Origin: an uncultured delta proteobacterium
GTDB taxonomy: Bacteria; Desulfobacterota; Binatia; DP-6
DNA: 64,000 nt
Reading direction: 5' to 3'
Assembly (NCBI GenBank): GCA_963815115.1
Contig: CAWFFN010000009.1
Span: 1,536,001 to 1,600,000 of the forward strand
The notes beneath the pieces were generated by a model. The model was given only the letters and a program-made list of their open reading frames with translations. It was not told the DNA's origin and ran no database searches. Made by a program: the position numbers and the translations under genes. Every line of letters begins with the position of its first letter. The first letter of the stretch is position 1. Below are positions 4,831 through 64,000 of the stretch, piece by piece.

Positions 4831-4888
4831 CTCCGGCACTCCTCGTGGCTGCGGCATCCGCCTTGTCGCAGGCCGCATCATGGGATAC

Positions 4889-4940
4889 GAAAGTGGCCCT
4901 GGCAACGAGCCACTTTCATTAAATCCGATGGGGCCACTCT
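4889..4940. promoter_or_regulatory. Probable MocR/GabR-type operator
   Basis: Perfect 9-bp inverted repeat GAAAGTGGC-N11-GCCACTTTC (4889-4917) plus a direct copy GCCACT at 4933, between the divergent oxidoreductase and regulator. Confidence 0.65.
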
Positions 4941-4941
4941 G

Positions 4942-6414: not shown

Positions 6415-6517
6415 GCGTTCGCGCGATCACTTCCGCTGCGATGCATTGACCGCTCCGGCGGCCGGCACTACCCTCCGGCGGGTGCAGTCCCGCCCGCCAG
6501 CCGGGGAGGCCAGACGC

Positions 6518-17461: not shown

Positions 17462-17557
17462 CGCGACCGCCTCGACGCTCGCAGCCGTGTCCCGACCTTG
17501 GCAAGCGTCGCCCCGACGTGCAATAGGGGACGCGTTTGAGGGAAGGGGGTTGAGGGT

Positions 17558-19048
17558 ATGCGCGTCCTGTTCGTTCACCCGAGCCCGCTGATCTTCTCCG
17601 AGATCTACCTGCGGCTGGAGCCGCTCGGGCTCGAGACCGTGGCGGCGGCAGCTCAGGCCGCCGGGCACGACGTCCGGCTGCTCGATCTGCAGGTGTCGCC
17701 GCCGCACGTCTACCGCGAGCTGCTCGCTCGCTGGAAGCCGGAGGCGATCGGATTTTCCCTCAACTACCTGGCGAACGTTCCGGAGGTGATCGACCTCAGC
17801 CGGGAAGCCAAGGCCGTCCTGCCGGACGTTCGCGTGTTCGTCGGTGGTCACAGCGCCTCCTTCGTCGCCGAGGATCTCCTGGGCCATGCGGAGGGAGCCA
17901 TCGACTGCGTCGTGCGCGGCGAGGGCGAGGGCGTGACGCCAGACGTGCTGGAGGCGCTGGCGGGCGGTCCGGATCTGAAGACGCTGCCCGGGGTGGTCAC
18001 CGCGACCGGCTCGGGTCCGCCTCCGCTGCTGCTCCGCGACCTGGAGCGCTACCGGCCCGCGAGATCGCTCGCCGGAAAGCGCCACCGCTACTTCATCGGC
18101 GAGCTCGATCCGTGCGCCTCGGTCGAGTTCACCCGCGGCTGTCCCTGGGACTGCGCCTTCTGCAGCGCCTGGACGTTCTACGGCCGCAGCTACCGCAAAG
18201 CCTCGCCCGAAGCCGTCGCCGCGGACCTGGCGCGCATCCGCGAGCCGAACGTCTTCATCGTCGACGACGTCGCCTTCATCCGGCCCGAGCACGGCATGGC
18301 CATCGCCGACGCGGTCGAGCGCCGCGGCATCCGCAAGCGCTACTATCTGGAGACGCGCGCCGACGTGCTGCTGCGCAACCGGGAGGTGTTCGAACGCTGG
18401 GTGAAGCTCGGCCTGCGCTACATGTTCCTCGGCATCGAGGCCATCGACGAAGAGGGACTGCGCCTCCATCGCAAGCGCGTCGCGCTGGGCGAGAACGAGC
18501 GTGCGCTCGAGGTGGCGCGCGAGCTCGGCATCGTGGTGGCCGTCAACATCATCGCCGACCCCGACTGGGACGAGCGGCGCTTCGCGATCGTGCGCGACTG
18601 GGCGCTCGCCATCCCCGAGATCGTCAACATGACGGTCAACACGCCATACCCCGGCACGGAGACGTGGCACACCGAGTCGCGACGCTTCACCACCCGCGAC
18701 TACCGGCTCTTCGACGTCCAGCACGCCGTGCTGCCCACGCGCCTGCCGCTGCCGCAGTTCTACGGCGAGTTCGCCAAGACCATCGACGTCCTCAACCGCA
18801 AGCATCTCGGCTGGCGCGCGGTCTACGACATCTTCGGCATCGTCGTGCGCCTGCTCGCACACGGGCAGACCAACTTCGTCCGCATGCTGTGGAAGTTCGG
18901 CGACGTCTACAACGTCGACCGGCTGGTGGGCGACCACCAGCGTCCCGTGCGCTACCCGTTGCGACTGCCCCAGGTGACGGCGCCCACGCGGCCGTCGCAC
19001 GACACGCTGTACGTGCATCACCCGACGGCGATCGCCGCCGGGCAGTGA
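17558..19048 (+). CDS. hpnR: Hopanoid C-3 methylase (B12-binding radical SAM)
   Basis: N-terminus VHPSPL..IYLRLEPLGLE, NYLANVPEV, VGGHSASF, RGCPWDCAFCSAWTFYGRSYR, TPYPGTE, DYRLFDVQHAVLPT: all characteristic of HpnR as I recall the family. Confidence 0.85.
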   Translation: MRVLFVHPSPLIFSEIYLRLEPLGLETVAAAAQAAGHDVRLLDLQVSPPHVYRELLARWKPEAIGFSLNYLANVPEVIDLSREAKAVLPDVRVFVGGHSASFVAEDLLGHAEGAIDCVVRGEGEGVTPDVLEALAGGPDLKTLPGVVTATGSGPPPLLLRDLERYRPARSLAGKRHRYFIGELDPCASVEFTRGCPWDCAFCSAWTFYGRSYRKASPEAVAADLARIREPNVFIVDDVAFIRPEHGMAIADAVERRGIRKRYYLETRADVLLRNREVFERWVKLGLRYMFLGIEAIDEEGLRLHRKRVALGENERALEVARELGIVVAVNIIADPDWDERRFAIVRDWALAIPEIVNMTVNTPYPGTETWHTESRRFTTRDYRLFDVQHAVLPTRLPLPQFYGEFAKTIDVLNRKHLGWRAVYDIFGIVVRLLAHGQTNFVRMLWKFGDVYNVDRLVGDHQRPVRYPLRLPQVTAPTRPSHDTLYVHHPTAIAAGQ

Positions 19049-49871: not shown

Positions 49872-49958
49872 CTCGCCCCTATATCATCTCCCATCACGAG
49901 TCGGCTGCGGTTGTACCGCCCGCGAGCGGCGTGCTAACCCGACCGAGAGGAGATTCCC

Positions 49959-51155
49959 ATGCGCAAGATGCGTGAAGCGGTCATCGTCGCCACCGCCCGG
50001 ACGGGCCTCGCCAAGTCGTTCAGGGGTGCGTTCAACCAGACACGTCCGGACGACCAGGCCGCGCACGTCATCAAGGCGGTGCTCGCGAAGGTGCCCAAGC
50101 TCGATCCCGAGGAGATCGACGACGTGGTCGCGGGCACCGGCTTCCCGGAGGGCCCGCAGGGATTCAACGTCGGGCGCAACGTCGCCATCATGGGCGGCCT
50201 GCCGCATTCCGTCGCCGGCTCGACGGTGAGCCGGTTCTGTTCCTCCGGGCTCAACGCCGTCGCGGTCGCCGCCCACATGGTGGAGAACGAGGGCTCCGAC
50301 GCGGTGATCGCGGTCGGCCTCGAATCCATCACCATGCTGCAGAACGACTTCAACAAGACGAACCTGTTCAACCCCTGGCTCATGGAGCACTACAAGCAGG
50401 TCTACATGCCGATGGGGCTGACCGCCGAGGTGGTGGCCGATCGCTACAAGGTCTCTCGCGAGGCGCAGGACGAGTACGCGCTCGCTTCCCAGCAGCGTAC
50501 CGCAGCTTTCCAGGAATCGGGGAAGCACCGGGACGAGATCGTGCCGATGACCGTCACCATGGCCGTGACCGACAAGGCCACCGGTCAGACCACCCAGAAG
50601 CAGGTCACGATCGATCGTGACGAGTGCAACCGCCCCGAGACCACGCTCGACGGCCTCAGGAAGCTCCCGCCGGCGTTCAAGGAGGGCGGCACCGTGACGG
50701 CGGGCAACTCGTCGCAGTTCTCCGACGGGGCCTCGGCCGTGCTCATGGTGTCGGCCGACAAGGCCGCGTCGCTGGGCGTGCGGCCGCTCGGCACCTTCCG
50801 CGGCTGCGTCTTTGCCGGGTGCGAGGCCGACGAGATGGGCATCGGGCCGGTCTTCGCGGTGCCAAAGCTGCTCAAGCGCGCGGGGCTCACCGTCGACGAC
50901 ATCGACGTCGTCGAGCTGAACGAGGCCTTCGCGTCCCAGGTGGTCTACTGCCGCGACCGGCTCGGCATCTCGATGGAGCAGCTCAACCCGAACGGGGGCT
51001 CGATCTCCATCGGCCATCCCTACGGGATGACCGGCGCCCGCATGACGGGGACGCTGCTGCTCGAGCTGCAGCGCCGGCGCAAGCGCTGGGGCATCGTCAC
51101 CATGTGCATCGGCGGCGGCATGGGCGCCGCGGGCCTCTTCGAAGCAGCGCTCTGA
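49959..51155 (+). CDS. Acetyl-CoA C-acyltransferase (thiolase)
   Basis: RFCSSG, NEAFA, GHPYG, MCIGGGMG. Confidence 0.96.
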   Translation: MRKMREAVIVATARTGLAKSFRGAFNQTRPDDQAAHVIKAVLAKVPKLDPEEIDDVVAGTGFPEGPQGFNVGRNVAIMGGLPHSVAGSTVSRFCSSGLNAVAVAAHMVENEGSDAVIAVGLESITMLQNDFNKTNLFNPWLMEHYKQVYMPMGLTAEVVADRYKVSREAQDEYALASQQRTAAFQESGKHRDEIVPMTVTMAVTDKATGQTTQKQVTIDRDECNRPETTLDGLRKLPPAFKEGGTVTAGNSSQFSDGASAVLMVSADKAASLGVRPLGTFRGCVFAGCEADEMGIGPVFAVPKLLKRAGLTVDDIDVVELNEAFASQVVYCRDRLGISMEQLNPNGGSISIGHPYGMTGARMTGTLLLELQRRRKRWGIVTMCIGGGMGAAGLFEAAL

Positions 51156-51173
51156 TCGGAGCGGCCGGGAGCG

Positions 51174-51584
51174 ATGGGGCGGGGGTACTGGCTCGTCAAG
51201 CAGGAGCCGACGAAGTACTCCTTCGACCAGCTGGTGGCGGACGGCGGCACGACGTGGGACGGCGTGCGCAACTTCCAGGCCCGCAACAACCTCCAGGCCA
51301 TGCGACGCGGCGACCGGGTTCTGTTCTACCACTCGGTGGTGGGCACGGCCGTGGTCGGCGTTTGCGAGGTGAAGCGGGAGGCGTATCCCGATCCGACGGC
51401 ACGGGAGGGAAGCTGGGTGGCGGTCGATCTCGCTCCGGTGAAGAAGCTCAAGCGTCCAGTGACCCTCGAGGAGATCAAAGCCGACAAGGCGCTGCGAACG
51501 ACTCCCCTGGTGCGGCAGTCGCGGCTGAGCGTCATGCCGATCGAGAAGACGGCCTTCGAGGCCATCGTGAAGCGGGGAGGTTGA
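51174..51584 (+). CDS. EVE domain protein
   Basis: YWLVKQEP, WDGVRNFQARN, FYHS, RLSVMP. Confidence 0.93.
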   Translation: MGRGYWLVKQEPTKYSFDQLVADGGTTWDGVRNFQARNNLQAMRRGDRVLFYHSVVGTAVVGVCEVKREAYPDPTAREGSWVAVDLAPVKKLKRPVTLEEIKADKALRTTPLVRQSRLSVMPIEKTAFEAIVKRGG

Positions 51585-52234
51585 TGCGAAGCGCGGTGCT
51601 GGTGGCGCTGATGGTCCTCGGGGCGGGCGCCGTCGCGCGGGCCGGGGAGCTGGATCAGCTGCGGAGCGAGAACGCCCAGCTCCGCGCGCGCGTGCAGGAG
51701 CTCGAACGGGAGAACGCCCGCCTCCGTGGCGACGCGAGCCACGGGTTGTCCGCCGCACTGGAGCAGCGCGCGACGGCGGCCGTCGCGGTCGCGCCGGGGG
51801 CGGCGCCCGGCACCACGAGCATCACCACCGAGGCGAGCCGGCTCGAGGGGATCGGGGGCGGGAAGTCGCGCCACTGGATCAGCTGGCGTGGGGAGCGCGC
51901 TGCTGGCGGCGGGCGTCCGGACGCGGCTGCGCTCGTCATCGACACGTCGGCCTCGGGCAGCATCTATCGTGGCGTCTCGACGCTCCGGCTGGTCGTCGAC
52001 GGCACGCCGGTCGACTGCACGGTCGCCGACTACAAGACGGAGACGCTGCCCACCGGCCGCAATGGTACCGACCGCATCCAGTCGGAGCGCGTGACCGCGA
52101 ACGTCCCGGCGGCCGTCCTCGACCGGCTCGCAGGCGCGAGCGACGTCAGCGGCACGCTCGGCCCCACCACGTTCCACCTCACCCCGGAGCAGATCGCCGC
52201 GGCACGAGCGTTCGTGCAGCGGCTCGGGGTCTGA
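51584..52234 (+). CDS. Hypothetical exported protein with short coiled coil
   Basis: TGATG coupling to the EVE gene; signal peptide ending ARA; LRSENAQLRARVQELERENARL. Confidence 0.7.
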   Translation: MRSAVLVALMVLGAGAVARAGELDQLRSENAQLRARVQELERENARLRGDASHGLSAALEQRATAAVAVAPGAAPGTTSITTEASRLEGIGGGKSRHWISWRGERAAGGGRPDAAALVIDTSASGSIYRGVSTLRLVVDGTPVDCTVADYKTETLPTGRNGTDRIQSERVTANVPAAVLDRLAGASDVSGTLGPTTFHLTPEQIAAARAFVQRLGV

Positions 52235-52244
52235 TCGCGCCGCA

Positions 52245-53042
52245 TCAGCGCGCCTCGAACTTCGGCTGCCGCTTCTCCTTGAAGGCGGCAACCGCCTCGG
52301 CGTGGTCGCGGGTGCGGTAGAGGTACTCCAGCGCGTAGCCCTCGTGGCGGACCTGCGCGTCGAAGGTTGCGGTCAGGCCCTGGTAGAGGGCGCGCCGCGT
52401 GAGCGTGACCGAGAGCGGTGCGCACTGCGCGATCTCACGGGCGAGGGCGGCCGCCGCATCGCACAGCTCGTTGCCCGGGACGACGTGGTTCACCAGGCCG
52501 ATGCGCTCGAGCTCGCCGGCGGCGTACTGCTTGCCGGTGAACATGAGCTCGCACGCCCGGCCGATGCCGACGAGGCGCGGCAGGAGGAAGGTGGAGCCCA
52601 GCTCGGCCATCACGCCCATGCGCGGGAAGAGAAATCCCAGCTTGGCGTCGGCCGAGGCCAGGCGGATGTCGCACAGCAGCGTCATCGTGCAGCCGACGCC
52701 GAGGGCGTAGCCGTTGATGGCGGCGATGGTGGGCTTCGAGAGGTGCTCCATCAGGGCGGGGAACTCCTCGACCCGGCCCGGCCCGTCACCGCCCTCGGCG
52801 CCCGTACCCCCGCCGCCGCGGATCTGTGCGGCGAAGAAGTCCATGTCGGCACCGGCGCAGAAGGCGCGGCCCGCGCCGGTCAGGATGACGGCACGCACGG
52901 CGCGGTCGCGGTCGGCGTCGCGGAAGGCCTGGGTCATCTCCCGGCCCATGGTAGGGGTCCAGGCGTTCAGGCGCTCGGGCCGATGGAGCGTGATGGTGGC
53001 GACGCCGTCGGCCCGCTCGTAGCGGATCGTCTCGAAGTCCAT
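52245..53042 (-). CDS. Enoyl-CoA hydratase/isomerase
   Basis: LHRPERLNA, AFCAGAD, KPTIAAINGYALGVG, AFKEKRQP. Confidence 0.95.
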   Translation of the reverse strand: MDFETIRYERADGVATITLHRPERLNAWTPTMGREMTQAFRDADRDRAVRAVILTGAGRAFCAGADMDFFAAQIRGGGGTGAEGGDGPGRVEEFPALMEHLSKPTIAAINGYALGVGCTMTLLCDIRLASADAKLGFLFPRMGVMAELGSTFLLPRLVGIGRACELMFTGKQYAAGELERIGLVNHVVPGNELCDAAAALAREIAQCAPLSVTLTRRALYQGLTATFDAQVRHEGYALEYLYRTRDHAEAVAAFKEKRQPKFEAR

Positions 53043-53112
53043 GACCGACGTGTAGTGCGGCCGTAGCGGCGCCGTCAAAGTCCGGTAGCGCGGCGCGTTC
53101 GGCTCCCCTCGC

Positions 53113-53174
53113 TTGACAAGGCACGGATCGGCCTTTAGACCGCTGACCGATCGGTTTAGCCCGATCGGTCAGCG
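53113..53174 (+). promoter_or_regulatory. Sigma70-like promoter plus palindromic operator of the mva/hpn operon
   Basis: TTGACA (53113)-N17-TAGACC (53136); perfect 14-bp inverted repeat CGCTGACCGATCGG-tttagc-CCGATCGGTCAGCG (53141-53174). Confidence 0.7.
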
Positions 53175-53287
53175 CTGGTGGGGCGGAGGGGTACGGGCTG
53201 AAATTCGTGGAGGACCAGATGGCTGGGGTTGAACTGGCAAGGCGTCGTGGTGGTCCTGACCGTGAGGTCAGCAGGCCGGAGCCCGTG

Positions 53288-54499
53288 ATGCAGAGAGACG
53301 ATCCGGGCAGCGCTGCAGGCTCCCGGATCTCCGGTTTCGGTCAGCTGGCTCGCGCGGATCGGCTGGCGCGGCTCACGGAGCAGGCGGCACTGGGGGCCGG
53401 CGAGGCGCGGGACCTGGCCGCCGGCGAGCCCCTCTCCTTCGAGGCCGCCGATCACGTCATCGAGAACGCGATCGGGGTGCTCGGCCTGCCGCTCGGGGTT
53501 GCGCTCAACTTCCGCATCAACGGCCGCGATCGCCTGGTGCCGATGGCGATCGAGGAGCCGTCCGTGGTGGCGGCGGCCAGCAGCGCGGCGCGCCTGGTGC
53601 GATCGGCCGGAGGATTCCTCGCCGACGCCGACCAGGCGATCATGATCGGCCAGATCCACGTCCTGCGCGTGCCCGACGTCGCCGGCGCCAGGGCACGCCT
53701 CGAGGCGGCCGCGCCGCGGCTCCTGGCTGCGGCGGACGCCGTTCATCCCGGGATGGCGCGTCGGGGGGCCGGCGCGCGCGCGATCGAGGTACGCGAGCTG
53801 GCCACCACGCCATGCGGCCCGGTCCTGGTCCTGCATCTCGCGGTCGACGTGGGCGACGCCATGGGCGCCAACGTCGTGAACACGATGGTCGAGGCGCTGG
53901 CTCCCGAGGTCGCATCGCTGACCGGCGGCGAGGTCCGGCTCTGCATCCTCTCGAATCTCGCCGATCGGCGGCTCGCGCGCGCGACGGCGCGGATCCCGTG
54001 GAGCCTGCTCGACAGGGCGACCTACGGTGGACGGCAGGTGGCGGAGCGGATCGTCGAGGCGTGGGCGCTCGCGGCGGCGGATCCGTATCGCGCGGCGACG
54101 CACAACAAGGGGGTCATGAACGGGATCGACGCCGTCGCGCTGGCCACCGGCAACGACTGGCGCGGCATCGAAGCCGGTGCGCATGCCTGGGCCGCGTGCC
54201 GTGGCGGCTACGGGCCGCTCACGATCTGGTCGCTCGACGGCGAGACCCTCTGCGGCGCCATCGAGCTGCCGCTCGCGGTCGCCATCGTGGGCGGGCACCT
54301 CGACCTGAACCCGCGCGCCCGGCTGTCGCTCAAGCTCATGGGCGCCGAGTCGGCGCGTGACCTCGCGGCCGTGATGGCCGCGGTGGGCCTCGCCCAGAAC
54401 TTCGCCGCGCTGCGAGCCCTCGTCACCGACGGCATCCAGCGCGGCCACATGGCGCTGCACGCGCGCGGGCTTGCCCTGCGCCAGCGAAAGGGCGCTTGA
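53288..54499 (+). CDS. mvaA: HMG-CoA reductase, class II
   Basis: IENAIG, EEPSVVAAAS, DAMGAN, THNKG, GNDWR, GIQRGHM. Start 53288 is tentative (ORF open from 53207). Confidence 0.95.
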   Translation: MQRDDPGSAAGSRISGFGQLARADRLARLTEQAALGAGEARDLAAGEPLSFEAADHVIENAIGVLGLPLGVALNFRINGRDRLVPMAIEEPSVVAAASSAARLVRSAGGFLADADQAIMIGQIHVLRVPDVAGARARLEAAAPRLLAAADAVHPGMARRGAGARAIEVRELATTPCGPVLVLHLAVDVGDAMGANVVNTMVEALAPEVASLTGGEVRLCILSNLADRRLARATARIPWSLLDRATYGGRQVAERIVEAWALAAADPYRAATHNKGVMNGIDAVALATGNDWRGIEAGAHAWAACRGGYGPLTIWSLDGETLCGAIELPLAVAIVGGHLDLNPRARLSLKLMGAESARDLAAVMAAVGLAQNFAALRALVTDGIQRGHMALHARGLALRQRKGA

Positions 54500-56427
54500 T
54501 GCTGCAGGCCACTCCGGCAGCCGCTCCGTCCCTCGCGCGACGGCTCGACGACGCCATCGCCCGGGCCCAGACGCGACTGCTCGGGATGCAGCATCCGGAC
54601 GGCTACTGGCATGCGCCCCTCGAGGCGAACGTGGGGATGGACGCGCAGTACGTGATCTTCAACCGCTTCGTCGGCCGGCGGCGCCAGGAAACCGAGCAGC
54701 GGCTGGTGGCGCGCATGCAGGCGCTCCAGTCGGCGGACGGGAGCTGGCCGCTGTTCGCGGGCGGTCCCGGCCATCTCAGCACCACGATCGAGGCCTACTT
54801 CGCGATGAAGCTCGCCGGGCTGACGGCCGAGCATCCCGTGCTGCGCCGGGCGCGCGAGTTCATCCGCGCTCACGGCGGTCTCGAGCGCGCCGGCGTCTTC
54901 ACGCGATGCTTCCTGGCGTACTTCGGCCAGTTCCCCTGGTGGGGCCTGCCCGCGATGCCGGTCGAGCTGGTGCTTCTCCCGCCCTGGTTCCCGCTCAACA
55001 TCTACGCCATGTCGAGCTGGGCCCGGGAGACCGTGGTGCCGCTCACCGTGCTGATGGCGAAGCGGCCCCGGGTTGCCATCCCTCCCGAGTGTGGCGTCGA
55101 GGAGCTGTGGCTCGCGCCGCCGACGAGGCAGAGCGTGGGCTTTCCGCCCAGCCGCGAATGGCTCTCGATCCGCAACGGCTTCCTGGCGCTCGACTGGGTC
55201 CTGCAGCGGATCGGCCGCAGCCCGTGGAAGCCTTGGCGAGCGCGCGCGCTCGAGAGGGCGCAGGCGTGGATCCTCGAACGCCAGGACCGCAACGGCGGCT
55301 GGGGCGGCATCCAGCCTCCCATGCTCAACTGCGTGATGGCGCTGCACGCGCTCGGGTTCGCCGCCGATCATCCGGCGGTGGTGAACGGCATCCAGGCGAT
55401 CGAGGACTTCCTCGTCGAGCACGACGGCCAGCTCTTCTTCCAGCCGTGCGTGTCGCCGACCTGGGACACGGCGCTCGCCCTGAAGGCGCTCCTCGATTCG
55501 GGATTGCCCGCGCAGCACGAGGCCGCGGTGGGCGCGGCGGAGTGGCTCATCGAGAACCAGGTGTTCCGCCCGGGCGACTGGAGCGTGCTCAACCCGGACC
55601 TCGAGCCGGGCGGCTGGGCGTTCGAGTTCGCCAACGACTGGTATCCCGACACCGACGACACGGCGGTGATCTTGATGGTGCTGCGGCGGATCGCCGTCCA
55701 GGACGCGGCGGCGCGGCAGCGCGCGATCGCGTTCGGCACCAACTGGGTTCTCGGCATGCAGAGCAGGAACGGCGGCTGGGGCGCCTTCGACACCAACAAC
55801 ACCGCGGCGTTCCTGAACGAGATCCCGTTCGCCGACATGCGGGCGATGATCGACCCGCCGACCGAGGACCTGACCGGCCGCCTGCTCGAGCTCATGGGCG
55901 AGAGCGGCTTCGATCTCACCTACACCCGCGCCCGGCGCGCGCGTGCCTTCCTCGTCGCGACGCAGCGCGCGGACGGCGCCTGGTGGGGACGGTGGGGCGG
56001 CAACTTCGTGTACGGCACGTGGTCGGCGCTCGCGGGCCTGCGCGCCATCGGCGAGGACATCGATGCGCCGTACGTGCGTCGCGCGGCCTCCTGGCTGGAG
56101 TCGCACCAGAACTCCGACGGCGGCTGGGGCGAGACGCTCGCGTCCTACGACGACGAGTCGCTCGCCGGCCGCGGCGAGTCGACGCCCTCGCAGACGGCGT
56201 GGGCGCTTCTCGGGCTCCTCGCCGCGACGCGGGACGTCGGGGAGGCGGTCGGGCGCGGCGTCGAGCACCTGCTCGCCACGCAGCGCGCGGATGGCGGCTG
56301 GGACGAGGATCCGTTCACCGGCACCGGATTCCCGGGGCACTTCTATCTGCGGTACTGGATGTACCGGGACTACTTCCCGCTGATGGCCCTGGGCCAGTGC
56401 CGCGCGCGACTGGAGGAGGGACGATGA
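54499..56427 (+). CDS. shc: Squalene-hopene cyclase
   Basis: QW repeats (QHPDGYW, QSADGSW, QNSDGGWGE), SPTWDT, catalytic YPDTDDTA. Confidence 0.97.
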   Translation: MLQATPAAAPSLARRLDDAIARAQTRLLGMQHPDGYWHAPLEANVGMDAQYVIFNRFVGRRRQETEQRLVARMQALQSADGSWPLFAGGPGHLSTTIEAYFAMKLAGLTAEHPVLRRAREFIRAHGGLERAGVFTRCFLAYFGQFPWWGLPAMPVELVLLPPWFPLNIYAMSSWARETVVPLTVLMAKRPRVAIPPECGVEELWLAPPTRQSVGFPPSREWLSIRNGFLALDWVLQRIGRSPWKPWRARALERAQAWILERQDRNGGWGGIQPPMLNCVMALHALGFAADHPAVVNGIQAIEDFLVEHDGQLFFQPCVSPTWDTALALKALLDSGLPAQHEAAVGAAEWLIENQVFRPGDWSVLNPDLEPGGWAFEFANDWYPDTDDTAVILMVLRRIAVQDAAARQRAIAFGTNWVLGMQSRNGGWGAFDTNNTAAFLNEIPFADMRAMIDPPTEDLTGRLLELMGESGFDLTYTRARRARAFLVATQRADGAWWGRWGGNFVYGTWSALAGLRAIGEDIDAPYVRRAASWLESHQNSDGGWGETLASYDDESLAGRGESTPSQTAWALLGLLAATRDVGEAVGRGVEHLLATQRADGGWDEDPFTGTGFPGHFYLRYWMYRDYFPLMALGQCRARLEEGR

Positions 56428-57650
56428 GCGGCATCGACGTGGGGATCGACCAGATCGGCGTGTACCTGCCCCGGTACGTGCTTCCCCTCGACCGGCTCGC
56501 CGAGGCGCGCAAGGTACCGGTCGAGAAGATCCTCCTCGGCCTCGGCGCCCAGGCGATGGCGGTTGCGCCGCCGTGGGAGGATGCGGTCACCCTCGCGGCC
56601 AACGCCGCTGCGCGGGTGCTGCGCCAGGGCGAGATTCGCACCGACGAGATCGGTCTGCTCGTGGTGGCGACCGAGACCGCCGTCGACCATGCCAAGCCCG
56701 CCAGCATCTTCCTGCACGAGCTGCTCGGGCTGCCGGCGAGCTGCCGGACGTTCGAGATCAAGCATGCCTGCTACGGTGGCACGGCCGGCGTCATGCTCGC
56801 CGCCGACTGGGTGCGTGGGGGCGCCGCGCGCGGACGCAAGGCGCTGGTCGTCGCCACCGACATCGCCCGCTACGACATCGGATCGAGCGCGGAGTTCACG
56901 CAGGGAGCGGGCGCGGCGGCCGTGGTGGTCAGCGCGGCGCCGCGGCTGCTGCGCCTCGGGCCCGTCACCGGTGTCTTCGCGCGCAACGTGTACGACTTCT
57001 GGCGGCCCCTCGAGCGCCGCGAGGCGCTGGTGGACGGGAAGTTCTCTCTCCAGTGCTACCTCGACGCGCTCACCGGCGCCGTGGCCGACTACCGCTCGTC
57101 GCTCAACGGGCAGGGCAGCCGCTCGCTCCTCGAGCGCTTCGCGGCCTTTCTCTATCACACGCCGTTCCCCAAGATGGCTCACAAGGCGCACCGCCGGCTG
57201 GTCGAGCTGGAGGCGCAGGGGCTCGGCGAGACGGCGATGAACGAGCGCTTCGAGCGCAGCTGGACGACGCAGGGCGAGCCCGCGCTCGGCCTGGCCCGCG
57301 AGAGCGGCAACACCTACACCGCCTCGCTCTACCTGGCGCTCGCGTGGCTCCTCGAGCGCGAGGGGGCCACCCTCGAGGACCGGGAGCTGGCGCTGTTCTC
57401 CTACGGCTCGGGGTGCTGCGCCGAGTTCTTCACCGCCCGTCCCGTGCCCGGCAGCGCGGCGCGCGCGGCCCGCATCGGCGCGCAGGCGATGCTGCAGGCA
57501 CGCCGGGAGCTCACCGTGGCAGAGTACGAGGAGTTCGCGCGTGCCGCGGCCGGCGCGGCGCTGCCGCCCGAGGGCGGCGCCGGGTTCTGCCACCTCGCCG
57601 GCATCGAGGAGCACCGGCGGCGCTACCAGCGTGCGGGGCAGGCGCTGTGA
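56424..57650 (+). CDS. mvaS: HMG-CoA synthase
   Basis: ATGA overlap with shc; VATETAVD, EIKHACYGGTA, TQGAGA, YDFWRP, HTPFPK, GNTYTASLY, SYGSG. Confidence 0.95.
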   Translation: MSGIDVGIDQIGVYLPRYVLPLDRLAEARKVPVEKILLGLGAQAMAVAPPWEDAVTLAANAAARVLRQGEIRTDEIGLLVVATETAVDHAKPASIFLHELLGLPASCRTFEIKHACYGGTAGVMLAADWVRGGAARGRKALVVATDIARYDIGSSAEFTQGAGAAAVVVSAAPRLLRLGPVTGVFARNVYDFWRPLERREALVDGKFSLQCYLDALTGAVADYRSSLNGQGSRSLLERFAAFLYHTPFPKMAHKAHRRLVELEAQGLGETAMNERFERSWTTQGEPALGLARESGNTYTASLYLALAWLLEREGATLEDRELALFSYGSGCCAEFFTARPVPGSAARAARIGAQAMLQARRELTVAEYEEFARAAAGAALPPEGGAGFCHLAGIEEHRRRYQRAGQAL

Positions 57651-58507
57651 CCGAACCCACCATCGGCGAGGCCTACGCCTACTGCCGTGCGGTCACGCGC
57701 CGCAGCGGCAGCAGCTTCGCCCAGGCCTTCCGGCTGCTCGGACCGGAGCGGCGCGGGGCGCTCGATGCCGTGTACGCGTTCTGCCGCTTCGTCGACGACG
57801 TCGCCGACGACGCGACCCGGCGCGATCCCGCGCGCCTGCTGGGGCGCTGGCGGGGCGAGCTCGAGCGCGTCTACACCGGCGCGCCGGAGCATCCCATCGG
57901 CGTGGCGCTGGCCGACGCCGTGCGCCGCTTCGACCTCCCGCGGCGGCACTTCGCCGACCTGATCCGCGGCGTCGAGATGGATCTGGAGCGCCGCCGCTAC
58001 CAGACCTTCGACCAGCTCCACGAGTACTGCTACCTGGTCGCGTCGACGGTCGGACTGCTCTGCATCGAGATCTTCGGCCACCGTCACGCCGCGGCGTTCG
58101 ACTACGCGAAGGACCTGGGCGTCGCCTTCCAGCTCACCAACATCCTGCGCGACGTGCACGAGGACGCCGAGCGCGGCCGGCTCTACCTGCCGCTCGAGGA
58201 CCTCGCCCGCTTCGACTGCGCGGAGGACGAGCTGCTCGCGGGCCGCTACTCGCCGCGCGTCGCCGCGCTCATGGCGTTCGAGTGCGGCCGGGCGCGCGCC
58301 TACTATCTGCGCGCGCGCGGCTCGCTGGTGCCCGAGGATCGCCGTGCGCTGGCACCGGCGGAGGCGATGCGGCTCATCTACGAGCGCCTCCTGTCGCGCA
58401 TCGAGTCGCGGCGCTTCGACGTCTTCCACGAGCGCATCGCGCTGCCGGGGTACGAGAAGGTCGGCCTCGCGCTCGCCGCGTGGGGGCGGGCACAGCTTCC
58501 GGCCTGA
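57647..58507 (+). CDS. hpnD: Presqualene diphosphate synthase (squalene/phytoene synthase family)
   Basis: GTGA overlap; YAFCRFVDDVAD, YCYLVASTVG, FQLTNILRDV.ED..RGRLYLP; followed by hpnE. Confidence 0.85.
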   Translation: MTEPTIGEAYAYCRAVTRRSGSSFAQAFRLLGPERRGALDAVYAFCRFVDDVADDATRRDPARLLGRWRGELERVYTGAPEHPIGVALADAVRRFDLPRRHFADLIRGVEMDLERRRYQTFDQLHEYCYLVASTVGLLCIEIFGHRHAAAFDYAKDLGVAFQLTNILRDVHEDAERGRLYLPLEDLARFDCAEDELLAGRYSPRVAALMAFECGRARAYYLRARGSLVPEDRRALAPAEAMRLIYERLLSRIESRRFDVFHERIALPGYEKVGLALAAWGRAQLPA

Positions 58508-58508
58508 C

Positions 58509-59891
58509 ATGGCCGACGTCGTCGTGATCGGTGGCGGGTTCGCCGGGCTGTCCGCGGCGGTGGCGCTGGCGGACCGGGGGGTGCGCGTCACGGTCCTCGA
58601 GGCGCGGCCGCGCCTCGGCGGGCGGGCCTCCTCGTTCCGCGACGCGACCAGCGGGTCGGTGGTCGACAACGGCCAGCACGCGATGATGGGCTGCTACACC
58701 CGCACGCTCGCGTTCCTCGACCGCATCGGAGCGGCGGACAAGGTCCAGCGCCAGGCGAACCTGCACGTCGAGCTCGTCCATCCCCGTCTGGGCGCGGGCG
58801 CGATCGCCTGCCCGGCGTGGCCCAGCCCGCTGCATCTCGTGGGCGGTCTCCTGCGCTACCGCCTGCTGTCGCGTCGCGAGCGCTTCGGGGCGTTGCACGC
58901 AGGGCTCGAGTTGATGGCGATGCGACGGCGGAACGATCCGCGGCTCGCCAGCGCGACCGTCGGCGAGGTCCTCGCCGATCTCGGCCAGTCGGCCCACGCG
59001 TGTACCAGCTTCTGGAACCCGGTGGCGCTGGCGACGCTCAACGAGACGCCCGAGCGGGCGGCCGCCGGGCCGTTCGTCGAGGTCCTCGCGCGGGCCTTCT
59101 TCCGGTCGCGGGCCGACTCGCAGTTCGTGCTGCCGCGGGTGGGCCTGGGCGACCTGTACACGGACGACGCCCGGCGCTTCGTCGAGCGGCGTGGCGGGCG
59201 GGTGTGGATTCACGCGCCGGCGGCGTCGGTCGAGGTCGGCGACGGAGCGGTGCGCGCCGTCGCGCTGCGCGACGGCCGCCGGCTCGCCGCGGACGGGTGC
59301 ATTGCCGCCGTGCCGCCGCCGGCGCTCGAGCCCCTGCTGCCGCCCGCACTCCGGGCCCGGGCGCCGTTCACCACGCTCGGGCGGCTCGAGGCGTCGCCGA
59401 TCGTGAGCACGCACCTGTGGTTCGACCGGCCCGTGCTGCGCGGGGACTTCGTCGGGCTCCTCGGCACGACCACCCACTGGGCCTTCAACCGGAGCCGGCT
59501 GCTCGGCGAGTCGGGTGACGGCCAGTGTGTCAGCGCGGTCATCAGCGCAGGGCGTTCGGTGGTCGGCTGGGACAGCGAGCGCATCACCGGCGCCGTGCTG
59601 GCCGACCTGCACGCGCTGCTGCCGACGGCGCGGGCCGCGGTGCTGCGCCATGCGGTGGTGGTGAAGGAGAAGCAGGCGACCGTGGCGCCCACCCCGGAGG
59701 CCGAGCGCCTCCGGCCACCCGCCGTGACCGACCTCGCCGGCCTGGTGCTCGCCGGCGACTGGACGGCCACCGGGCTGCCCCCGACGATCGAGAGCGCCGT
59801 GGAGAGCGGGGACCGGGCGGCCGCACTGCTGGCCGAACGTCTCGGCGCGACCCCAGACTCCGTCTCGGGTCGGAACGGAAAGGGAGAATGA
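58509..59891 (+). CDS. hpnE: Hydroxysqualene dehydroxylase (FAD-dependent)
   Basis: IGGGFAGLSAA, LGGRASSF, DNGQH, EKQAT, LAGDWTATGLPPTIESAVESG. Confidence 0.92.
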   Translation: MADVVVIGGGFAGLSAAVALADRGVRVTVLEARPRLGGRASSFRDATSGSVVDNGQHAMMGCYTRTLAFLDRIGAADKVQRQANLHVELVHPRLGAGAIACPAWPSPLHLVGGLLRYRLLSRRERFGALHAGLELMAMRRRNDPRLASATVGEVLADLGQSAHACTSFWNPVALATLNETPERAAAGPFVEVLARAFFRSRADSQFVLPRVGLGDLYTDDARRFVERRGGRVWIHAPAASVEVGDGAVRAVALRDGRRLAADGCIAAVPPPALEPLLPPALRARAPFTTLGRLEASPIVSTHLWFDRPVLRGDFVGLLGTTTHWAFNRSRLLGESGDGQCVSAVISAGRSVVGWDSERITGAVLADLHALLPTARAAVLRHAVVVKEKQATVAPTPEAERLRPPAVTDLAGLVLAGDWTATGLPPTIESAVESGDRAAALLAERLGATPDSVSGRNGKGE

Positions 59892-59977
59892 CACTCGATG
59901 AAGAGTGCGGGCGTCGTGCCGCGGCCGGCGAAGCCGGCGCGGCAGCCGTCCCGGACGCCACACGCTCGCTCTTCTAG
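59888..59977 (+). CDS. Possible 29-aa small ORF
   Basis: AGGGAG RBS and ATGA overlap with the hpnE stop; MTLDEECGRRAAAGEAGAAAVPDATRSLF*; ends just before the hpnH RBS. Confidence 0.3.
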   Translation: MTLDEECGRRAAAGEAGAAAVPDATRSLF

Positions 59978-59992
59978 CGGAGGTCGAAGCGC

Positions 59993-60991
59993 ATGAGGTT
60001 TCCCGTCCACATCGCCACCGACATGATCGCGTGGCAGCTGCGGAACTGGTGGCGCGGCAACGCGCGCTATCCGTCCGTGCTGATGCTCGAGCCGCTCCAC
60101 ACCTGCAACCTCGCCTGCCTCGGCTGCTCGCCGGAGCGCTACAGCGGCGACCTGAAGGATCGCCTCTCGCTCGCCCAGTGCCTGGAGGCGGTGGACGAGG
60201 CGGGCACCCCGGTGGTGTCGATCTGCGGCGGCGAGCCGACCATCTATCCCGAGCTGCCCGAGCTGATCGACGCCATCGTGGCCCGCAAGCGCCACATCTA
60301 CCTGTGCACCAACGGGCTCCTGCTCGAGCGCTTCTACAAGCGTGGCCATCCCCACAAGCGGCTCTCCATCAACGTGCACCTCGACGGCATGCGCGCGACG
60401 CACGACCTGATCACCGACCGGGCCGGCACCTTCGACCGCGCGATCGAGATGATCAAGGAGGGCAAGCGGCGCGGCTACGCCGTGTGCACCAACACGACGA
60501 TCTTCCGTGAGACCTCGATGGACGAGATCGAGGAGATGTGCGAGCTGCTCACCGGGCTCGGCGTCGACGGCATGCTGATCTCGCCCGGCTACCACTACGC
60601 GGCCATCGCGGAGGATCGCTTCCTCCATCGCGACGAGACCCATCGCCAGTTCCAGCGCGTGCTCGCGCTGTCCAAGCGCTATCCCATCTCCTCGACGCCG
60701 CTCTTCCTCCAGTTCGCGGCCGGGCAGCGCGACTACCCGTGCACGCCGTGGGGGACCCCGACCCGCACCCCGAAGGGCTGGAAGGGGCCCTGCTACCTCA
60801 TCGAGGGCAAGTACTACGGGAGCTGGAAGGACTTCTGGGGCGGCGTCGACTGGGACTACTGGGAGTCGCGCCAGGACCCGCGCTGCCAGAACTGCTTCAT
60901 GCACTCCGGCTTCGAGCCGTCGGTCGTCCGCAAGCTCGGCGAGAGCCCGCGCGACGTGTGGACGATGGCGCGCTGGAACCTGGGCGCGTGA
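59993..60991 (+). CDS. hpnH: Adenosyl-hopene transferase (radical SAM)
   Basis: VLMLEPLHTCNLACLGC, VVSICGGEP, LCTNG, CTPWG, DPRCQNCFMHSGFE; hopanoid operon context. Confidence 0.9.
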   Translation: MRFPVHIATDMIAWQLRNWWRGNARYPSVLMLEPLHTCNLACLGCSPERYSGDLKDRLSLAQCLEAVDEAGTPVVSICGGEPTIYPELPELIDAIVARKRHIYLCTNGLLLERFYKRGHPHKRLSINVHLDGMRATHDLITDRAGTFDRAIEMIKEGKRRGYAVCTNTTIFRETSMDEIEEMCELLTGLGVDGMLISPGYHYAAIAEDRFLHRDETHRQFQRVLALSKRYPISSTPLFLQFAAGQRDYPCTPWGTPTRTPKGWKGPCYLIEGKYYGSWKDFWGGVDWDYWESRQDPRCQNCFMHSGFEPSVVRKLGESPRDVWTMARWNLGA

Positions 60992-61066
60992 TCAGGGGCG
61001 GCGCGCGTCCGCGCCGAGCCGGCGTGCGGCCCGACTGCCGGTTGCCGGAGGCGTCGCCTTCGCCCC

Positions 61067-61705
61067 TCAGCTCTTGAATTCCTGACCCGCTGCGGTCTTC
61101 TCCTTCAGCAGCTGCAGGAGCTTCTCCGGTCCCCCGCTGGCGACGATGTCCTGGAACTGGGAGCGGAAGTTGGCCACCATGCTGACCTGCTCGATGATGA
61201 AGTCGATCACCTTCCACTGCCCGTTGGTCTGACGGAGCCGGTAGTCGACTTCGATGTCGTTCGACCCGCCGCCGCGGAGTATCCTGCTCTGCACGGTCCA
61301 GTCGCCGTTCGGCTCCCGACGGTCGCCGACGATCGCGACCTTCTCGTTGCGGTAGTCGTCCAGCCGCCGGCCGTAGGTGGCCGCGAGGTGGTCCTGGAAC
61401 CTCTGCAAGAACTCCTGCTGCTGGGCGGGCGAGAATCGGCTCCAGTTGCGTGCCAGCACGAGACGGCTGAGGGTCTCGAAGTCGACGCTGCGGAGCACGA
61501 TGGCCCGCACCTTGTCCCGCCGCGCCTCCTTGCTGAGGTCCTTCTCGGCGAGCACGGCGAGCACCTGATCGGACGTGCCCTGCACCACCTCGCGCGGGGG
61601 CGGCTCGGCCGCGCCGGGGTGGGCCAGCCCCGCGAGGAGGAGCGCGCAGGCGAGCGCCAACCCCCGGCGGAGCTCACGGTACCGTGTAGAGTTCTTCATT
61701 CTCAT
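61067..61705 (-). CDS. mlaC: MlaC/Ttg2D (HpnM-like) periplasmic lipid-binding protein
   Basis: Signal peptide; VDFETLSRLVLARNW, VDYRL..WKVIDFIIEQVSMVANFRSQF. Confidence 0.88.
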   Translation of the reverse strand: MRMKNSTRYRELRRGLALACALLLAGLAHPGAAEPPPREVVQGTSDQVLAVLAEKDLSKEARRDKVRAIVLRSVDFETLSRLVLARNWSRFSPAQQQEFLQRFQDHLAATYGRRLDDYRNEKVAIVGDRREPNGDWTVQSRILRGGGSNDIEVDYRLRQTNGQWKVIDFIIEQVSMVANFRSQFQDIVASGGPEKLLQLLKEKTAAGQEFKS

Positions 61706-62489
61706 AGCTCGGGGTCTCCTCGGGAGTGAGCCGCTCCGTCCGGTCGTGCACCAGGGCGTCGCGTCGCTGCAGGTATGCGTTGCGCACGAACGTGTAGTAG
61801 TCGAGCGAGGCGGCCTTGGCCTCTTCCACGGCTTTCAGGAACTGCGCCCGGGCGTTGATCACGTCGACGACGCGGGCGCCGACCAGGATCCAGCCGTCGA
61901 TGAAGAACGGCGTGATCGCGGCCGCCGAGTCGACGGCGAGCGCAGGCGCGTCGCGCGCGCTCGAGGGCCCCAGCACCGGGAGCACGAGATACGGCCCCGG
62001 GGGCACGCCCCAGACGCCGAGCGTCTGGCCGAAGTCCTCCTCCTCGGGCTTGAGCCCGATCTCGCTTGCCGGGTCGAGGAAGCCGCCGGCGCCGAGCACC
62101 GTGTTGACGGTGAAGCGACCGACGGCCTTGGCGGCCGGGATGCCCTTTCCCTGCAGCAGGTTGTTCACCAGGTCGACGGGGAAGCGCAGGTTGCCGAAGA
62201 AGTTCGACAGGCTGTCCTGCACCGGCTGCGGCGCCACCGTGTGCCATCCGGTGGCGACGGGTGCGAGCACGTGGGTGTCGAGCCCGTCGTTGAACCAGAA
62301 AATCTTGCGATTGAACCCCATCCACGGGTCGTACTCCTGCGATCCCTGATTCACCGTCGACGGCTCCGCACCGCGCGCGGGAAGTGGAGACGTGGGCCGC
62401 GCAGGGGCCGCGGGCTCCTCGGCGCCGGCGAAGCGCGCGCTCAGAGCGGCCGCGATCAGCAGGGTTGCAAGCAACCGATGTCGACGCAT
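61674..62489 (-). CDS. mlaA: MlaA/VacJ family protein
   Basis: ATG 62489 after GGAGG; DPWMGFNR, EDFGQTLGVWG..GPYLVLPVLGPSSARD, YTFVRNAYLQRR. Confidence 0.92.
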   Translation of the reverse strand: MRRHRLLATLLIAAALSARFAGAEEPAAPARPTSPLPARGAEPSTVNQGSQEYDPWMGFNRKIFWFNDGLDTHVLAPVATGWHTVAPQPVQDSLSNFFGNLRFPVDLVNNLLQGKGIPAAKAVGRFTVNTVLGAGGFLDPASEIGLKPEEEDFGQTLGVWGVPPGPYLVLPVLGPSSARDAPALAVDSAAAITPFFIDGWILVGARVVDVINARAQFLKAVEEAKAASLDYYTFVRNAYLQRRDALVHDRTERLTPEETPSYENEELYTVP

Positions 62490-62503
62490 CGAACCTCCCA
62501 TCC

Positions 62504-62981
62504 TCATTGTTCGGACTTGTCCCCGTTGCCCCCGACGTCCGTGCTGTGCACGAGCTTGCCCAGCAGACGCTCGAGCAGGACGGCCGACTCGGTGAACGCG
62601 ATCGGGTCCCCGGACTTGAGCATGATCCTGCTCGCCGCCGAGCTGGAGCGAGATGTAGCGATCGCCGAGGAGCCCGGCCGTGACGATCGAGGCGGAGGTA
62701 TCCTTCGGCAGCCGCAGGCGAGGGTCGAGATCGAGCGTCACGTGGGCACGGTAGTCGTCACCGAGGCCGATCGAGCGCACCTGACCCACCTTCACCCCGG
62801 AGATCACCACCGGAGCTCGGGTCTTGAGCCCGCCGAGCTCGTCGAAGTCGGCGGTGAGCACGAAGCCGCCCGGCCCCTGCCGGGAAAGGCCGCCGACGGC
62901 CAGCGACAGGTAGGCGAGGGCAGCGAGCCCGAGGAGGACGAAGAGACCCACGAGCAGGTCACGGCCCGGCGATCGGCTCAC
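62504..62981 (-). CDS. mlaD: MlaD (MCE domain), with one apparent frameshift near 62625
   Basis: LLVGLFVLLG, GGLKTRAPVVISGVKVGQV, GLLGDRYISL; the tail LKSGDPIAFTESAVLLERLLGKL is in the adjacent frame and stops at 62504. Confidence 0.88.
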
Positions 62982-62985
62982 GCGT

Positions 62986-63762
62986 TCACACCCCCCACAG
63001 CGCGGTGATGAGATAGTCGGAGATCAGGACGCTCACCGACGCGACGACGACGGTGGCCGTCGTGGCGGCGCTCACCCCCGCGGACGTGGGCGCGCTGGTG
63101 TAGCCGCGAAAGGTGGAGATCCAGCCGACGAGCACCCCGAACACGCCCGCTTTCAGCAGGCTCCCGCCGAGGTCGTCGCGCAGGTCGAGGGAGGACTCGA
63201 GGCTCGTGAGGTAGGTGCCGCTGTCGACGCCGAGAAGCTTCACTCCCACCAACCAGCCGCCGAAGATGCCGCACACGATGAAGAGCGCCGTCAGCAGCGG
63301 CATCACCAGGATCATGCCGACCGCACGCGGCGCGACGACGTAGTCGACGGGATCGACGGACATCATGCGCAGGCCGTCGAGCTGCTGGGTGGCGACCATG
63401 GTGCCGATCTCCGCCGTCGTTGCCGAGCCGGCGCGGCCGGTCACCAGGAGCGCGGTCAGCACCGGGCCGAGCTCGCGCACCAGACTCAGGCCGACGACCG
63501 CGCCGAGCGACTGCGTGGCCCCGAAGCGTTCGAGCGTGTTGTAGCCCTGGAGGCCGAGCACCATGCCCACCGCCACTCCGCTGACGCAGATGATGAGGAG
63601 CGAGAGGACGCCCAGCTTGTAGACCTCGTCGACGACGTTGCGCAGCCGCCAGGGCGGAGTGACGGCATCCCGGATCACCTCGAGCAGAAACAGCGCCATG
63701 GAGCCGACGTCGGCAACGACCCGCGTCGTCGTGCTGCCGAGCTGGCGGACGGCCGCCACCAT
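62986..63762 (-). CDS. mlaE: MlaE ABC permease
   Basis: RELGPVLTALLVTGRAGSATTAEIGTM, PVDYVVAPR, GVSAATT. Confidence 0.95.
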   Translation of the reverse strand: MVAAVRQLGSTTTRVVADVGSMALFLLEVIRDAVTPPWRLRNVVDEVYKLGVLSLLIICVSGVAVGMVLGLQGYNTLERFGATQSLGAVVGLSLVRELGPVLTALLVTGRAGSATTAEIGTMVATQQLDGLRMMSVDPVDYVVAPRAVGMILVMPLLTALFIVCGIFGGWLVGVKLLGVDSGTYLTSLESSLDLRDDLGGSLLKAGVFGVLVGWISTFRGYTSAPTSAGVSAATTATVVVASVSVLISDYLITALWGV

Positions 63763-64000
63763 CAGATCGCCTCCGGCAGCGCGTCGAGATCGGTGCTCAG
63801 GAACGCGCGCACGCGCGGATCGGTGCTGGCGCGCAGCTCGTCGGGGGCTCCCTGGAAGAAGCCGCCGGGGAGCAGCAGGAGCACGCGCTCGGCCATGCGC
63901 ATGGTGGAGTCGATGTCGTGCGACACCACCACGGTGGTGATGCCGCGCGCGCGGTTGATCTGCGTCAGCAGTAGCTCGATGCGCTTGGACGAGATGGGGT
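63762..64000 (-). CDS. mlaF: MlaF ABC ATPase, C-terminal part only
   Basis: PISSKRIELL..TTVVVSHD (H-loop)..STDPRVRAFL; stop overlaps the mlaE start. Confidence 0.85.
   Translation of the reverse strand, partial: PISSKRIELLLTQINRARGITTVVVSHDIDSTMRMAERVLLLLPGGFFQGAPDELRASTDPRVRAFLSTDLDALPEAI

Follow-up and report, generated by a model that had tools for sequence, protein, structure and literature searches.

The methylerythritol phosphate (MEP) route to isoprenoids was first recognised through the labelling of hopanoids, and the hopanoid producers studied so far are, to our knowledge, taken to feed squalene from this route. Classical hopanoid (hpn) gene clusters often carry ispH or dxs. As described in PMC5462960 (citing Perzl 1998 and Pan 2015), the clusters of Zymomonas and Rhodopseudomonas run hpnC-hpnD-hpnE and then shc/hpnF, the cyclase gene; the discovery of the MEP pathway is credited to Rohmer 1999 in PMC8237579. 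Here, we analysed a 64-kb stretch of DNA from an uncultured bacterium that GTDB places in the Binatia (contig CAWFFN010000009.1, positions 1,536,001 to 1,600,000; hereafter the window), in which the gene for squalene-hopene cyclase (SHC) lies between two genes of the mevalonate pathway. Six genes on the + strand, at window positions 53207-60991, follow one another in the order mvaA-shc-mvaS-hpnD-hpnE-hpnH. We hold, with a probability of roughly 0.7, that this is a trimmed form of an operon found across a Binatia-like lineage, in which the hopanoid pathway is merged with the mevalonate operon of the cell.

Compared with classical hpn clusters, HpnD, HpnE, SHC and HpnH of the window belong to the same families, and their genes are likewise clustered and co-directional. 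Unlike in those clusters, however, shc lies upstream of hpnD and hpnE with mvaA and mvaS on either side of it, there is no hpnC, and no MEP-pathway domain (e.g., of ispH or dxs) was found among 60 open reading frames (ORFs) of the window in a general Pfam scan, which was not a search targeted at them. Partial precedents for polycyclic triterpenoids fed by mevalonate exist in PMC5462960 and PMC8237579. In the former, the metagenome-assembled genome (MAG) of a subdivision 22 acidobacterium, 'Mor1', lacks MEP genes, has most mevalonate genes together with shc and hpnH, and is predicted, like the organism of the window, to make hopanoids from mevalonate; unlike the window, it carries a squalene synthase-like gene instead of hpnCDE, and the text describes no interleaving of mva genes with shc. 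According to PMC8237579, the mevalonate pathway is found among steroid-producing bacteria only in myxobacteria and Dadabacteria, whose sterol synthesis resembles the window in coupling mevalonate to a polycyclic triterpenoid. PMC7306690 notes that HpnC, HpnD and HpnE are not always found together. A figure legend on alphaproteobacterial hopanoid clusters in PMC12583986 names 'mevalonate pathway' genes, a phrase whose sense is ambiguous there. Our literature search found no description of a hopanoid operon that contains mevalonate genes, nor of mevalonate genes in Binatia, and the main text of the Binatota genome paper PMC8262859 makes no mention of hopanoids, squalene, mevalonate, isoprenoids, MEP or isopentenyl. 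The original prediction for this locus, made by a model from the DNA letters, had known of no described operon with this gene order, and neither the literature nor that main text yielded an instance of it; the organisation is a lineage-wide variant that is apparently undescribed.

The genes from mvaA to hpnE are five genes on one strand, joined at all four junctions by an overlap or a 1-nt gap. At the mvaA/shc junction (TGATG, 54497-54501), the mvaA stop TGA (54497-54499) and the shc ATG at 54499 overlap by 1 nt, or by 4 nt if shc instead starts at TTG 54496. An ATGA overlap at 56424-56427, with GGAGGAGG immediately 5', joins shc to mvaS, and a GTGA overlap at 57647-57650 joins mvaS to hpnD; the TGA of hpnD ends at 58507 and the ATG of hpnE follows at 58509, which leaves a gap of 1 nt. 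These junctions lie where the original prediction had placed them (54499, 56424, 57647 and 58509), and its picture of six co-directional, tightly packed genes forming a unit was borne out. It had also set the start at 53113, but the in-frame stop at 53144-53146 makes this impossible for mvaA; the earliest possible starts are GTG 53207 and ATG 53219. Because the genes from mvaA to hpnE overlap or abut, they most likely form one transcript with translational coupling. The end of hpnE (59891) and the ATG of hpnH (59993) are 101 nt apart, and hpnH probably belongs to this transcript too. The spacer between them (59892-59992) is G+C-rich and contains inverted repeats, in a window whose G+C content is 67-74% along its whole length. 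RNA folds of this spacer (z -1.15) and of the region after hpnH (z -1.17) were no better than those of shuffled sequences, and scanning the entire window for Rfam families and tRNAs returned nothing, so no riboswitch or RNA leader was found.

Table 1. Genes of the mvaA-hpnH operon and other features of the window. Scores are in bits; where two numbers are given, the second is the cut-off of the model.
Feature	Window position	Strand	Evidence or remark
hpnR, B12-binding radical S-adenosylmethionine (SAM) hopanoid C-3 methylase	17540..19048	+	TIGR04367 834.8 vs 650
Thiolase, candidate acetoacetyl-CoA supplier	49959..51155	+	Thiolase_N, Thiolase_C; TIGR01930 414.8 vs 240.55
EVE-domain gene	51174-51584	+	EVE 152.4
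Small protein with hydrophobic N-terminus	51584-52234	+	48% identical to L003:5761-6399
Enoyl-CoA hydratase family gene, divergent from mvaA	52245..53078	-	ECH_1 191.1
mvaA, class II 3-hydroxy-3-methylglutaryl-CoA (HMG-CoA) reductase	53207..54499	+	Start GTG 53207 or ATG 53219; Pfam, NCBIfam, solved relatives
shc, squalene-hopene cyclase	54499..56427	+	NCBIfam TIGR01507; chain 1gsz_A
mvaS, HMG-CoA synthase	56424..57650	+	Pfam N and C domains; 5hwo_A
hpnD, presqualene diphosphate synthase	57647..58507	+	TIGR03465
hpnE, hydroxysqualene dehydroxylase (flavin adenine dinucleotide (FAD) amine-oxidase fold)	58509..59891	+	TIGR03467; Pfam Amino_oxidase
hpnH, radical-SAM adenosyl-hopene transferase	59993..60991	+	TIGR03470; Radical_SAM and DUF3463
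MlaC	61067-61705	-	Downstream of the operon, convergent to it
435-aa ORF with MlaD domain (residues 8-120) and MlaA lipoprotein domain (208-424)	61674-62981	-	
MlaE	62986-63999+	-	Downstream of the operon, convergent to it

Family calls were made with Pfam and NCBIfam models by comparing bit scores with curated cut-offs, and the two sets of models agreed with all six gene identities given in the original prediction, MvaS reaching its Pfam cut-offs but staying slightly under that of its NCBIfam model TIGR01835. MvaA scored 340.5 bits for Pfam HMG-CoA_red (PF00368; cut-off 27) and 375.1 for TIGR00532 (cut-off 259.95), while the class I model TIGR00533 gave only 42.5 against a cut-off of 441.8. 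It aligned over its full length with solved class II enzymes (best relatives 9v7y, 6dio and 1qax), and its stretches EEPSVVAA, HNKG, GNDWR and GHM.LH were aligned with, and identical in kind to, those of chain 9v7y_A; we take these stretches to hold the catalytic Glu, Lys, Asp and His of a class II reductase. SHC scored 742.8 for TIGR01507 (cut-off 431.1) and 264.7 for the oxidosqualene cyclase model (cut-off 851), and matched chain 1gsz_A with 593.9 bits, its DTDD standing opposite the DVDD of that chain (the DxDD protonation motif). MvaS contained both HMG_CoA_synt_N (86.7 bits) and HMG_CoA_synt_C (88.8 bits), each above the Pfam cut-off of 25, and matched the solved HMG-CoA synthase 5hwo_A with 317 bits. 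Its residues E84, C116 (in KHACYGG) and H245, presumably the catalytic Glu/Cys/His triad, were invariant in a 37-sequence alignment (A1). For HpnD, TIGR03465 gave 310.9 (cut-off 278.6); for HpnE, TIGR03467 gave 422 (cut-off 283.05) and Pfam Amino_oxidase 167.3 bits; and for HpnH, TIGR03470 gave 367.6 (cut-off 225.05), with Radical_SAM and DUF3463 domains present. By these family assignments, all enzymes of the operon are of known kinds, and the surprise of the locus is limited because no new enzyme family is involved.

The arrangement of these genes is conserved among relatives. We scanned one genome per species with the 37-synthase alignment, kept the best 80 of 581 stretches, and compared these loci using the window proteins together with the lower-pathway and HpnC proteins of two of them (L005 and L079). 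In a quick, unrooted maximum-likelihood tree of 81 synthases (the window and 80 loci), the window synthase fell in a clade of 10 rows (window, L001-L007, L009 and L061; Shimodaira-Hasegawa-like approximate likelihood ratio test (SH-aLRT) 98), where it paired with L001 (SH-aLRT 99). The clade loci are MAG sequences titled mostly Candidatus Binatia. Among the best 120 synthase relatives in the protein database, identity ranged from 99% to 54%, and the named ones were labelled Deltaproteobacteria bacterium, Thermodesulfobacteriota bacterium or Candidatus Binatia bacterium. The relatives of the organism are thus Binatia-labelled MAGs and not a classical proteobacterium, a point absent from the original prediction, which had compared the locus with proteobacterial hpn clusters.

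The search for shc next to mvaA and mvaS in other genomes, which the original prediction had proposed, found shc immediately 5' of mvaS in seven of the nine clade loci (L001, L002, L003, L004, L005, L007 and L009; in L004, only the C-terminal half of shc is left before the contig end). In L006, just 112 nt of upstream sequence are present and the adjacency is not readable, and in L061 shc is absent. hpnC and/or hpnD lie directly downstream of mvaS in eight of the nine. L001, whose synthase is 81% identical to that of the window, and L003 have the exact window order mvaA-shc-mvaS-hpnD-hpnE-hpnH, with hpnE-hpnH spacers of 15 nt and 16 nt, respectively, versus 101 nt in the window. Because L001 and L003 are independent assemblies that share this order, an assembly artefact was ruled out. 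Of the seven sequences in which both shc and mvaS are complete (the window and six loci), six have the 4-nt ATGA overlap, and two protein-database entries span the gene boundaries: P0088, with cyclase C-terminal and synthase domains, covers the shc/mvaS junction, and P0254, with synthase C-terminal and SQS_PSY domains, covers the junction of mvaS and a squalene gene. Outside the clade, squalene genes occurred in the fetched flank of only 2 of 70 loci (L063 and L079), and a distant cyclase homologue only in L034 and L079 (24-26% identity). The mvaA-shc-mvaS-hpn arrangement is more than chance.

Within the clade, the hopanoid genes are linked to the full mevalonate pathway. L005 has the order mvd-pmk-like-idi2-mvaA-mvk-shc-mvaS-hpnC-hpnD-hpnE on one strand, the genes mostly overlapping or nearly so, with NCBIfam scores of 256.7 for mvd (cut-off 171), 362 for idi2 (cut-off 281), 194 for mvk (cut-off 163) and 316.6 for hpnC (cut-off 250). 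Judged from these sequences, the ten-gene string covers the steps from HMG-CoA formation to hopene and is short only of a thiolase and of farnesyl diphosphate (FPP) synthase. L009, which is cut at its 5' end, reads idi2-mvaA-mvk-shc-mvaS-hpnC-hpnD-hpnE, and L061 reads mvd-pmk-like-idi2-mvaA-mvk-mvaS, which is the L005 order without shc or hpn genes. The window shares the shc-mvaS ATGA junction and the downstream hpnD-hpnE with L005 and L009 (cyclase 64-67% identical, synthase 53% identical); unlike the window, L005 keeps mvd, pmk-like, idi2, mvk and hpnC, L009 does the same with mvd and pmk beyond its contig end, and neither has hpnH within the fetched flank. The window also resembles L061, a plain mevalonate operon of a Binatia MAG, in that its mvaA and mvaS fall in one clade with those of L061 (both 55% identical) and stand in the same relative order, but it lacks mvd, pmk, idi2 and mvk, has shc in place of mvk between mvaA and mvaS, and continues with hpnD-E-H. 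Relative to L005, the window layout thus lacks hpnC and the four genes of the lower pathway but has hpnH in addition. A protein-database search with the L005 MVD returned numerous relatives labelled Binatia or Binatus, and the mevalonate pathway is therefore common in the group. The best 120 of these matches were all at least 71% identical (i.e., saturated by the L005-like lineage), and the finding that none of them lies on a contig of 563308 bp, the length of the L001 contig, is uninformative on the lower pathway of L001. The original prediction had proposed a module leading from acetyl-CoA to hopanoids; the link between mevalonate and hopanoid genes that it saw is conserved, with the full lower pathway in L005, whereas the window alone does not make up a self-contained module.

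Two loci outside the clade combine mevalonate and squalene genes in other ways. L079 (4479-21219; a Myxococcales MAG) holds idi2-mvk-mvd-pmk-like-mvaA-mvaS beside a cyclase, an FAD monooxygenase, FPP synthase and hpnC-D-E. Unlike in the window, its cyclase (26% identical to the window SHC) is on the opposite strand beside the monooxygenase, and its synthase falls outside the Binatia clade; the locus looks like a mevalonate-plus-triterpenoid supercluster that is sterol-like rather than hopanoid. In L063 (7383-15155; a MAG titled Deltaproteobacteria bacterium), mvaS is followed by hpnE-hpnD-hpnC-mvd-mvk on the opposite strand, which is a mevalonate-squalene gene linkage outside the Binatia clade.

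In the pathway that we propose, MvaS would form HMG-CoA from acetyl-CoA and acetoacetyl-CoA, with the thiolase encoded 2 kb upstream as a candidate source of acetoacetyl-CoA, and the class II reductase MvaA would convert HMG-CoA to mevalonate. The conversion of mevalonate to isopentenyl and dimethylallyl diphosphate and on to FPP would require the products of mvk, pmk, mvd and idi2 together with FPP synthase, all of which we infer to be encoded elsewhere in the genome. HpnD would then join two FPP into presqualene diphosphate, the HpnC step, which has no gene in the window, would likewise be supplied from elsewhere in the genome, and HpnE would yield squalene. SHC would cyclise squalene to hopene or diplopterol, HpnH would add the adenosyl group for extended hopanoids, and HpnR (encoded 35 kb away) would methylate C-3. 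Coupling within the operon would tie hopanoid output (i.e., squalene formation, cyclisation and side-chain extension) to the entry of carbon into the mevalonate pathway. In this picture, the gene families, the junctions and their conservation among relatives are observed, and co-transcription, flux and the place of the missing steps are inferred.

Several results weigh against the reading of the locus as a merged mevalonate-hopanoid operon. Six-frame tblastn of the window with L005 and L079 proteins (E<=1e-3) found no match for mvk, pmk, mvd or idi2, in agreement with the original prediction that lower-mevalonate genes are missing from the window. An FPP synthase query from a related locus found none at the same threshold, and the L005 HpnC query matched only hpnD, at 36% identity. 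None of these six genes was found in the ±10-kb flanks of L001 and L003 either. The pathway as encoded in the window therefore has two gaps, and the data being a 64-kb window, it is possible that an MEP pathway or a second mevalonate locus lies elsewhere in the genome. MvaS scored 350.1 for TIGR01835, slightly below the cut-off of 360.35. A consensus scan of 49800-61300 gave 0 sigma-70-like promoters and 0 intrinsic terminators (shuffles 0.3 and 2.3), although such a scan is uninformative about transcripts of a genome with 71% G+C, and a promoter could lie in the 101 nt between hpnE and hpnH. Finally, L061, which has no shc, lies inside the clade as the sister of L007 (SH-aLRT 98). With this shc-free locus nested within the clade of an unrooted tree, the tree does not tell gain of shc from loss, and we no longer argue that an older, plain mevalonate operon took up shc.

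The mva genes probably serve the general isoprenoid supply of the cell and not a private supply of hopanoids. The alternative, which the original prediction had favoured, is a dedicated module in which mvaA and mvaS form a private, co-regulated hopanoid supply and other isoprenoids come from the MEP pathway or from a second mevalonate locus. In the window, L001 and L003, the upper-pathway genes are indeed interleaved with hopanoid genes and stand apart from those of the lower pathway, and four junctions of the window are tightly coupled. However, the operon of L005 and L009 includes lower-pathway genes as well, arranged as in the plain mevalonate operon of L061, and therefore resembles a housekeeping operon to which shc was added. 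General supply is favoured because the gene order corresponds to that of a housekeeping mevalonate operon with an added shc (compare L061 with L005), and also because no clade assembly contributed two synthase loci: in the best 80 of the 581 stretches, each related assembly had one synthase locus, with one exception outside the clade, which is weak evidence since these are MAGs and the 80 are a part of the 581. We thus consider a dedicated module unlikely. A further reading is that the mva genes do not feed isoprenoids at all and act in mevalonate catabolism or branched-chain acyl-CoA metabolism, with the hpn genes as chance neighbours. The best NCBIfam model for MvaA is named 'hydroxymethylglutaryl-CoA reductase, degradative' and an enoyl-CoA hydratase gene lies divergently upstream, but the 'degradative' model covers class II reductases in general, mvk, mvd, pmk-like and idi2 lie in the same string in relatives, and no HMG-CoA lyase domain was found among the ORFs scanned with Pfam. 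The hydratase gene has no counterpart at the same place in L001 or L003 and is probably not part of the unit, and we give this catabolic role hardly any credence.

The missing hpnC raises a separate alternative, namely that HpnD and HpnE make squalene without HpnC, either by themselves or together with an unrelated enzyme, or that the cyclase is given another C30 product. All three sequences of the window type (window, L001 and L003) lack hpnC in the operon, and all six other clade loci with squalene genes have it immediately 3' of mvaS. Likewise, no HpnC was found on the L001 contig among the best 120 matches to the HpnC of L002, a weak negative. On the other hand, HpnD of the window is ordinary, with an ordinary length of 286 aa, and is 58% identical to HpnD of L005 versus 36% to its HpnC. 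Between HpnD proteins with and without a neighbouring hpnC, only three alignment columns were fixed differently, and none shifted uniformly to the HpnC residue; this column comparison gave no sign of a gained HpnC-like function. hpnC may also lie elsewhere in the genome, the L001 check being one contig and the best 120 matches. An HpnC-independent route is therefore quite doubtful, and we are just as sceptical of the composite reading in which the Binatia-like lineage makes hopanoids from mevalonate via one coupled operon and the window subclade in addition uses a two-enzyme HpnD/HpnE route without HpnC. If true, HpnD and HpnE acting without HpnC would represent a bacterial route to squalene reduced to two enzymes.

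Under the favoured reading of a trimmed, lineage-wide operon that merges the two pathways, a globally distributed, uncultured (soil-type) lineage appears to wire hopanoid synthesis into its mevalonate operon. Such wiring would affect the interpretation of isotopes and biomarkers, as carbon flow and fractionation differ between the mevalonate and MEP pathways. It would also bear on how a cell balances membrane triterpenoids against other isoprenoids, and on how a sterol-like logic (acetyl-CoA to mevalonate to squalene to polycycle) evolved in bacteria. The ten-gene string of L005 is a natural compact cassette that would be suited to heterologous expression.

The original prediction had overlooked two genes 5' of the operon, the thiolase gene at a distance of 2 kb and hpnR at 35 kb. 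The thiolase gene heads a thiolase-EVE-small protein string on the operon strand. Together with a SAM hydrolase-family gene (- strand), this string forms a block (48990-52234) that is kept upstream of mvaA in L003 (3182-6399). There, thiolase, EVE and small protein genes are all on the operon strand, and in the window the opposite-strand hydratase gene is interposed. hpnR belongs to the same pathway and lies outside the operon; its presence in the window predicts that the organism makes 3-methylhopanoids.

Elsewhere in the window, overlapping long frames at 3406-6426 encode molybdopterin oxidoreductase domains (- strand) versus GntR and aminotransferase domains (+ strand), and gene limits there need care in DNA of such high G+C content. 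Downstream of hpnH, the ORF that joins MlaD and MlaA domains is an unusual fusion of inner- and outer-membrane parts of the Mla system. Homologues of MlaC, MlaA/D and MlaE also lie a few kb 3' of hpnH in L001, and this neighbourhood may point to a connection of lipid transport with hopanoids.

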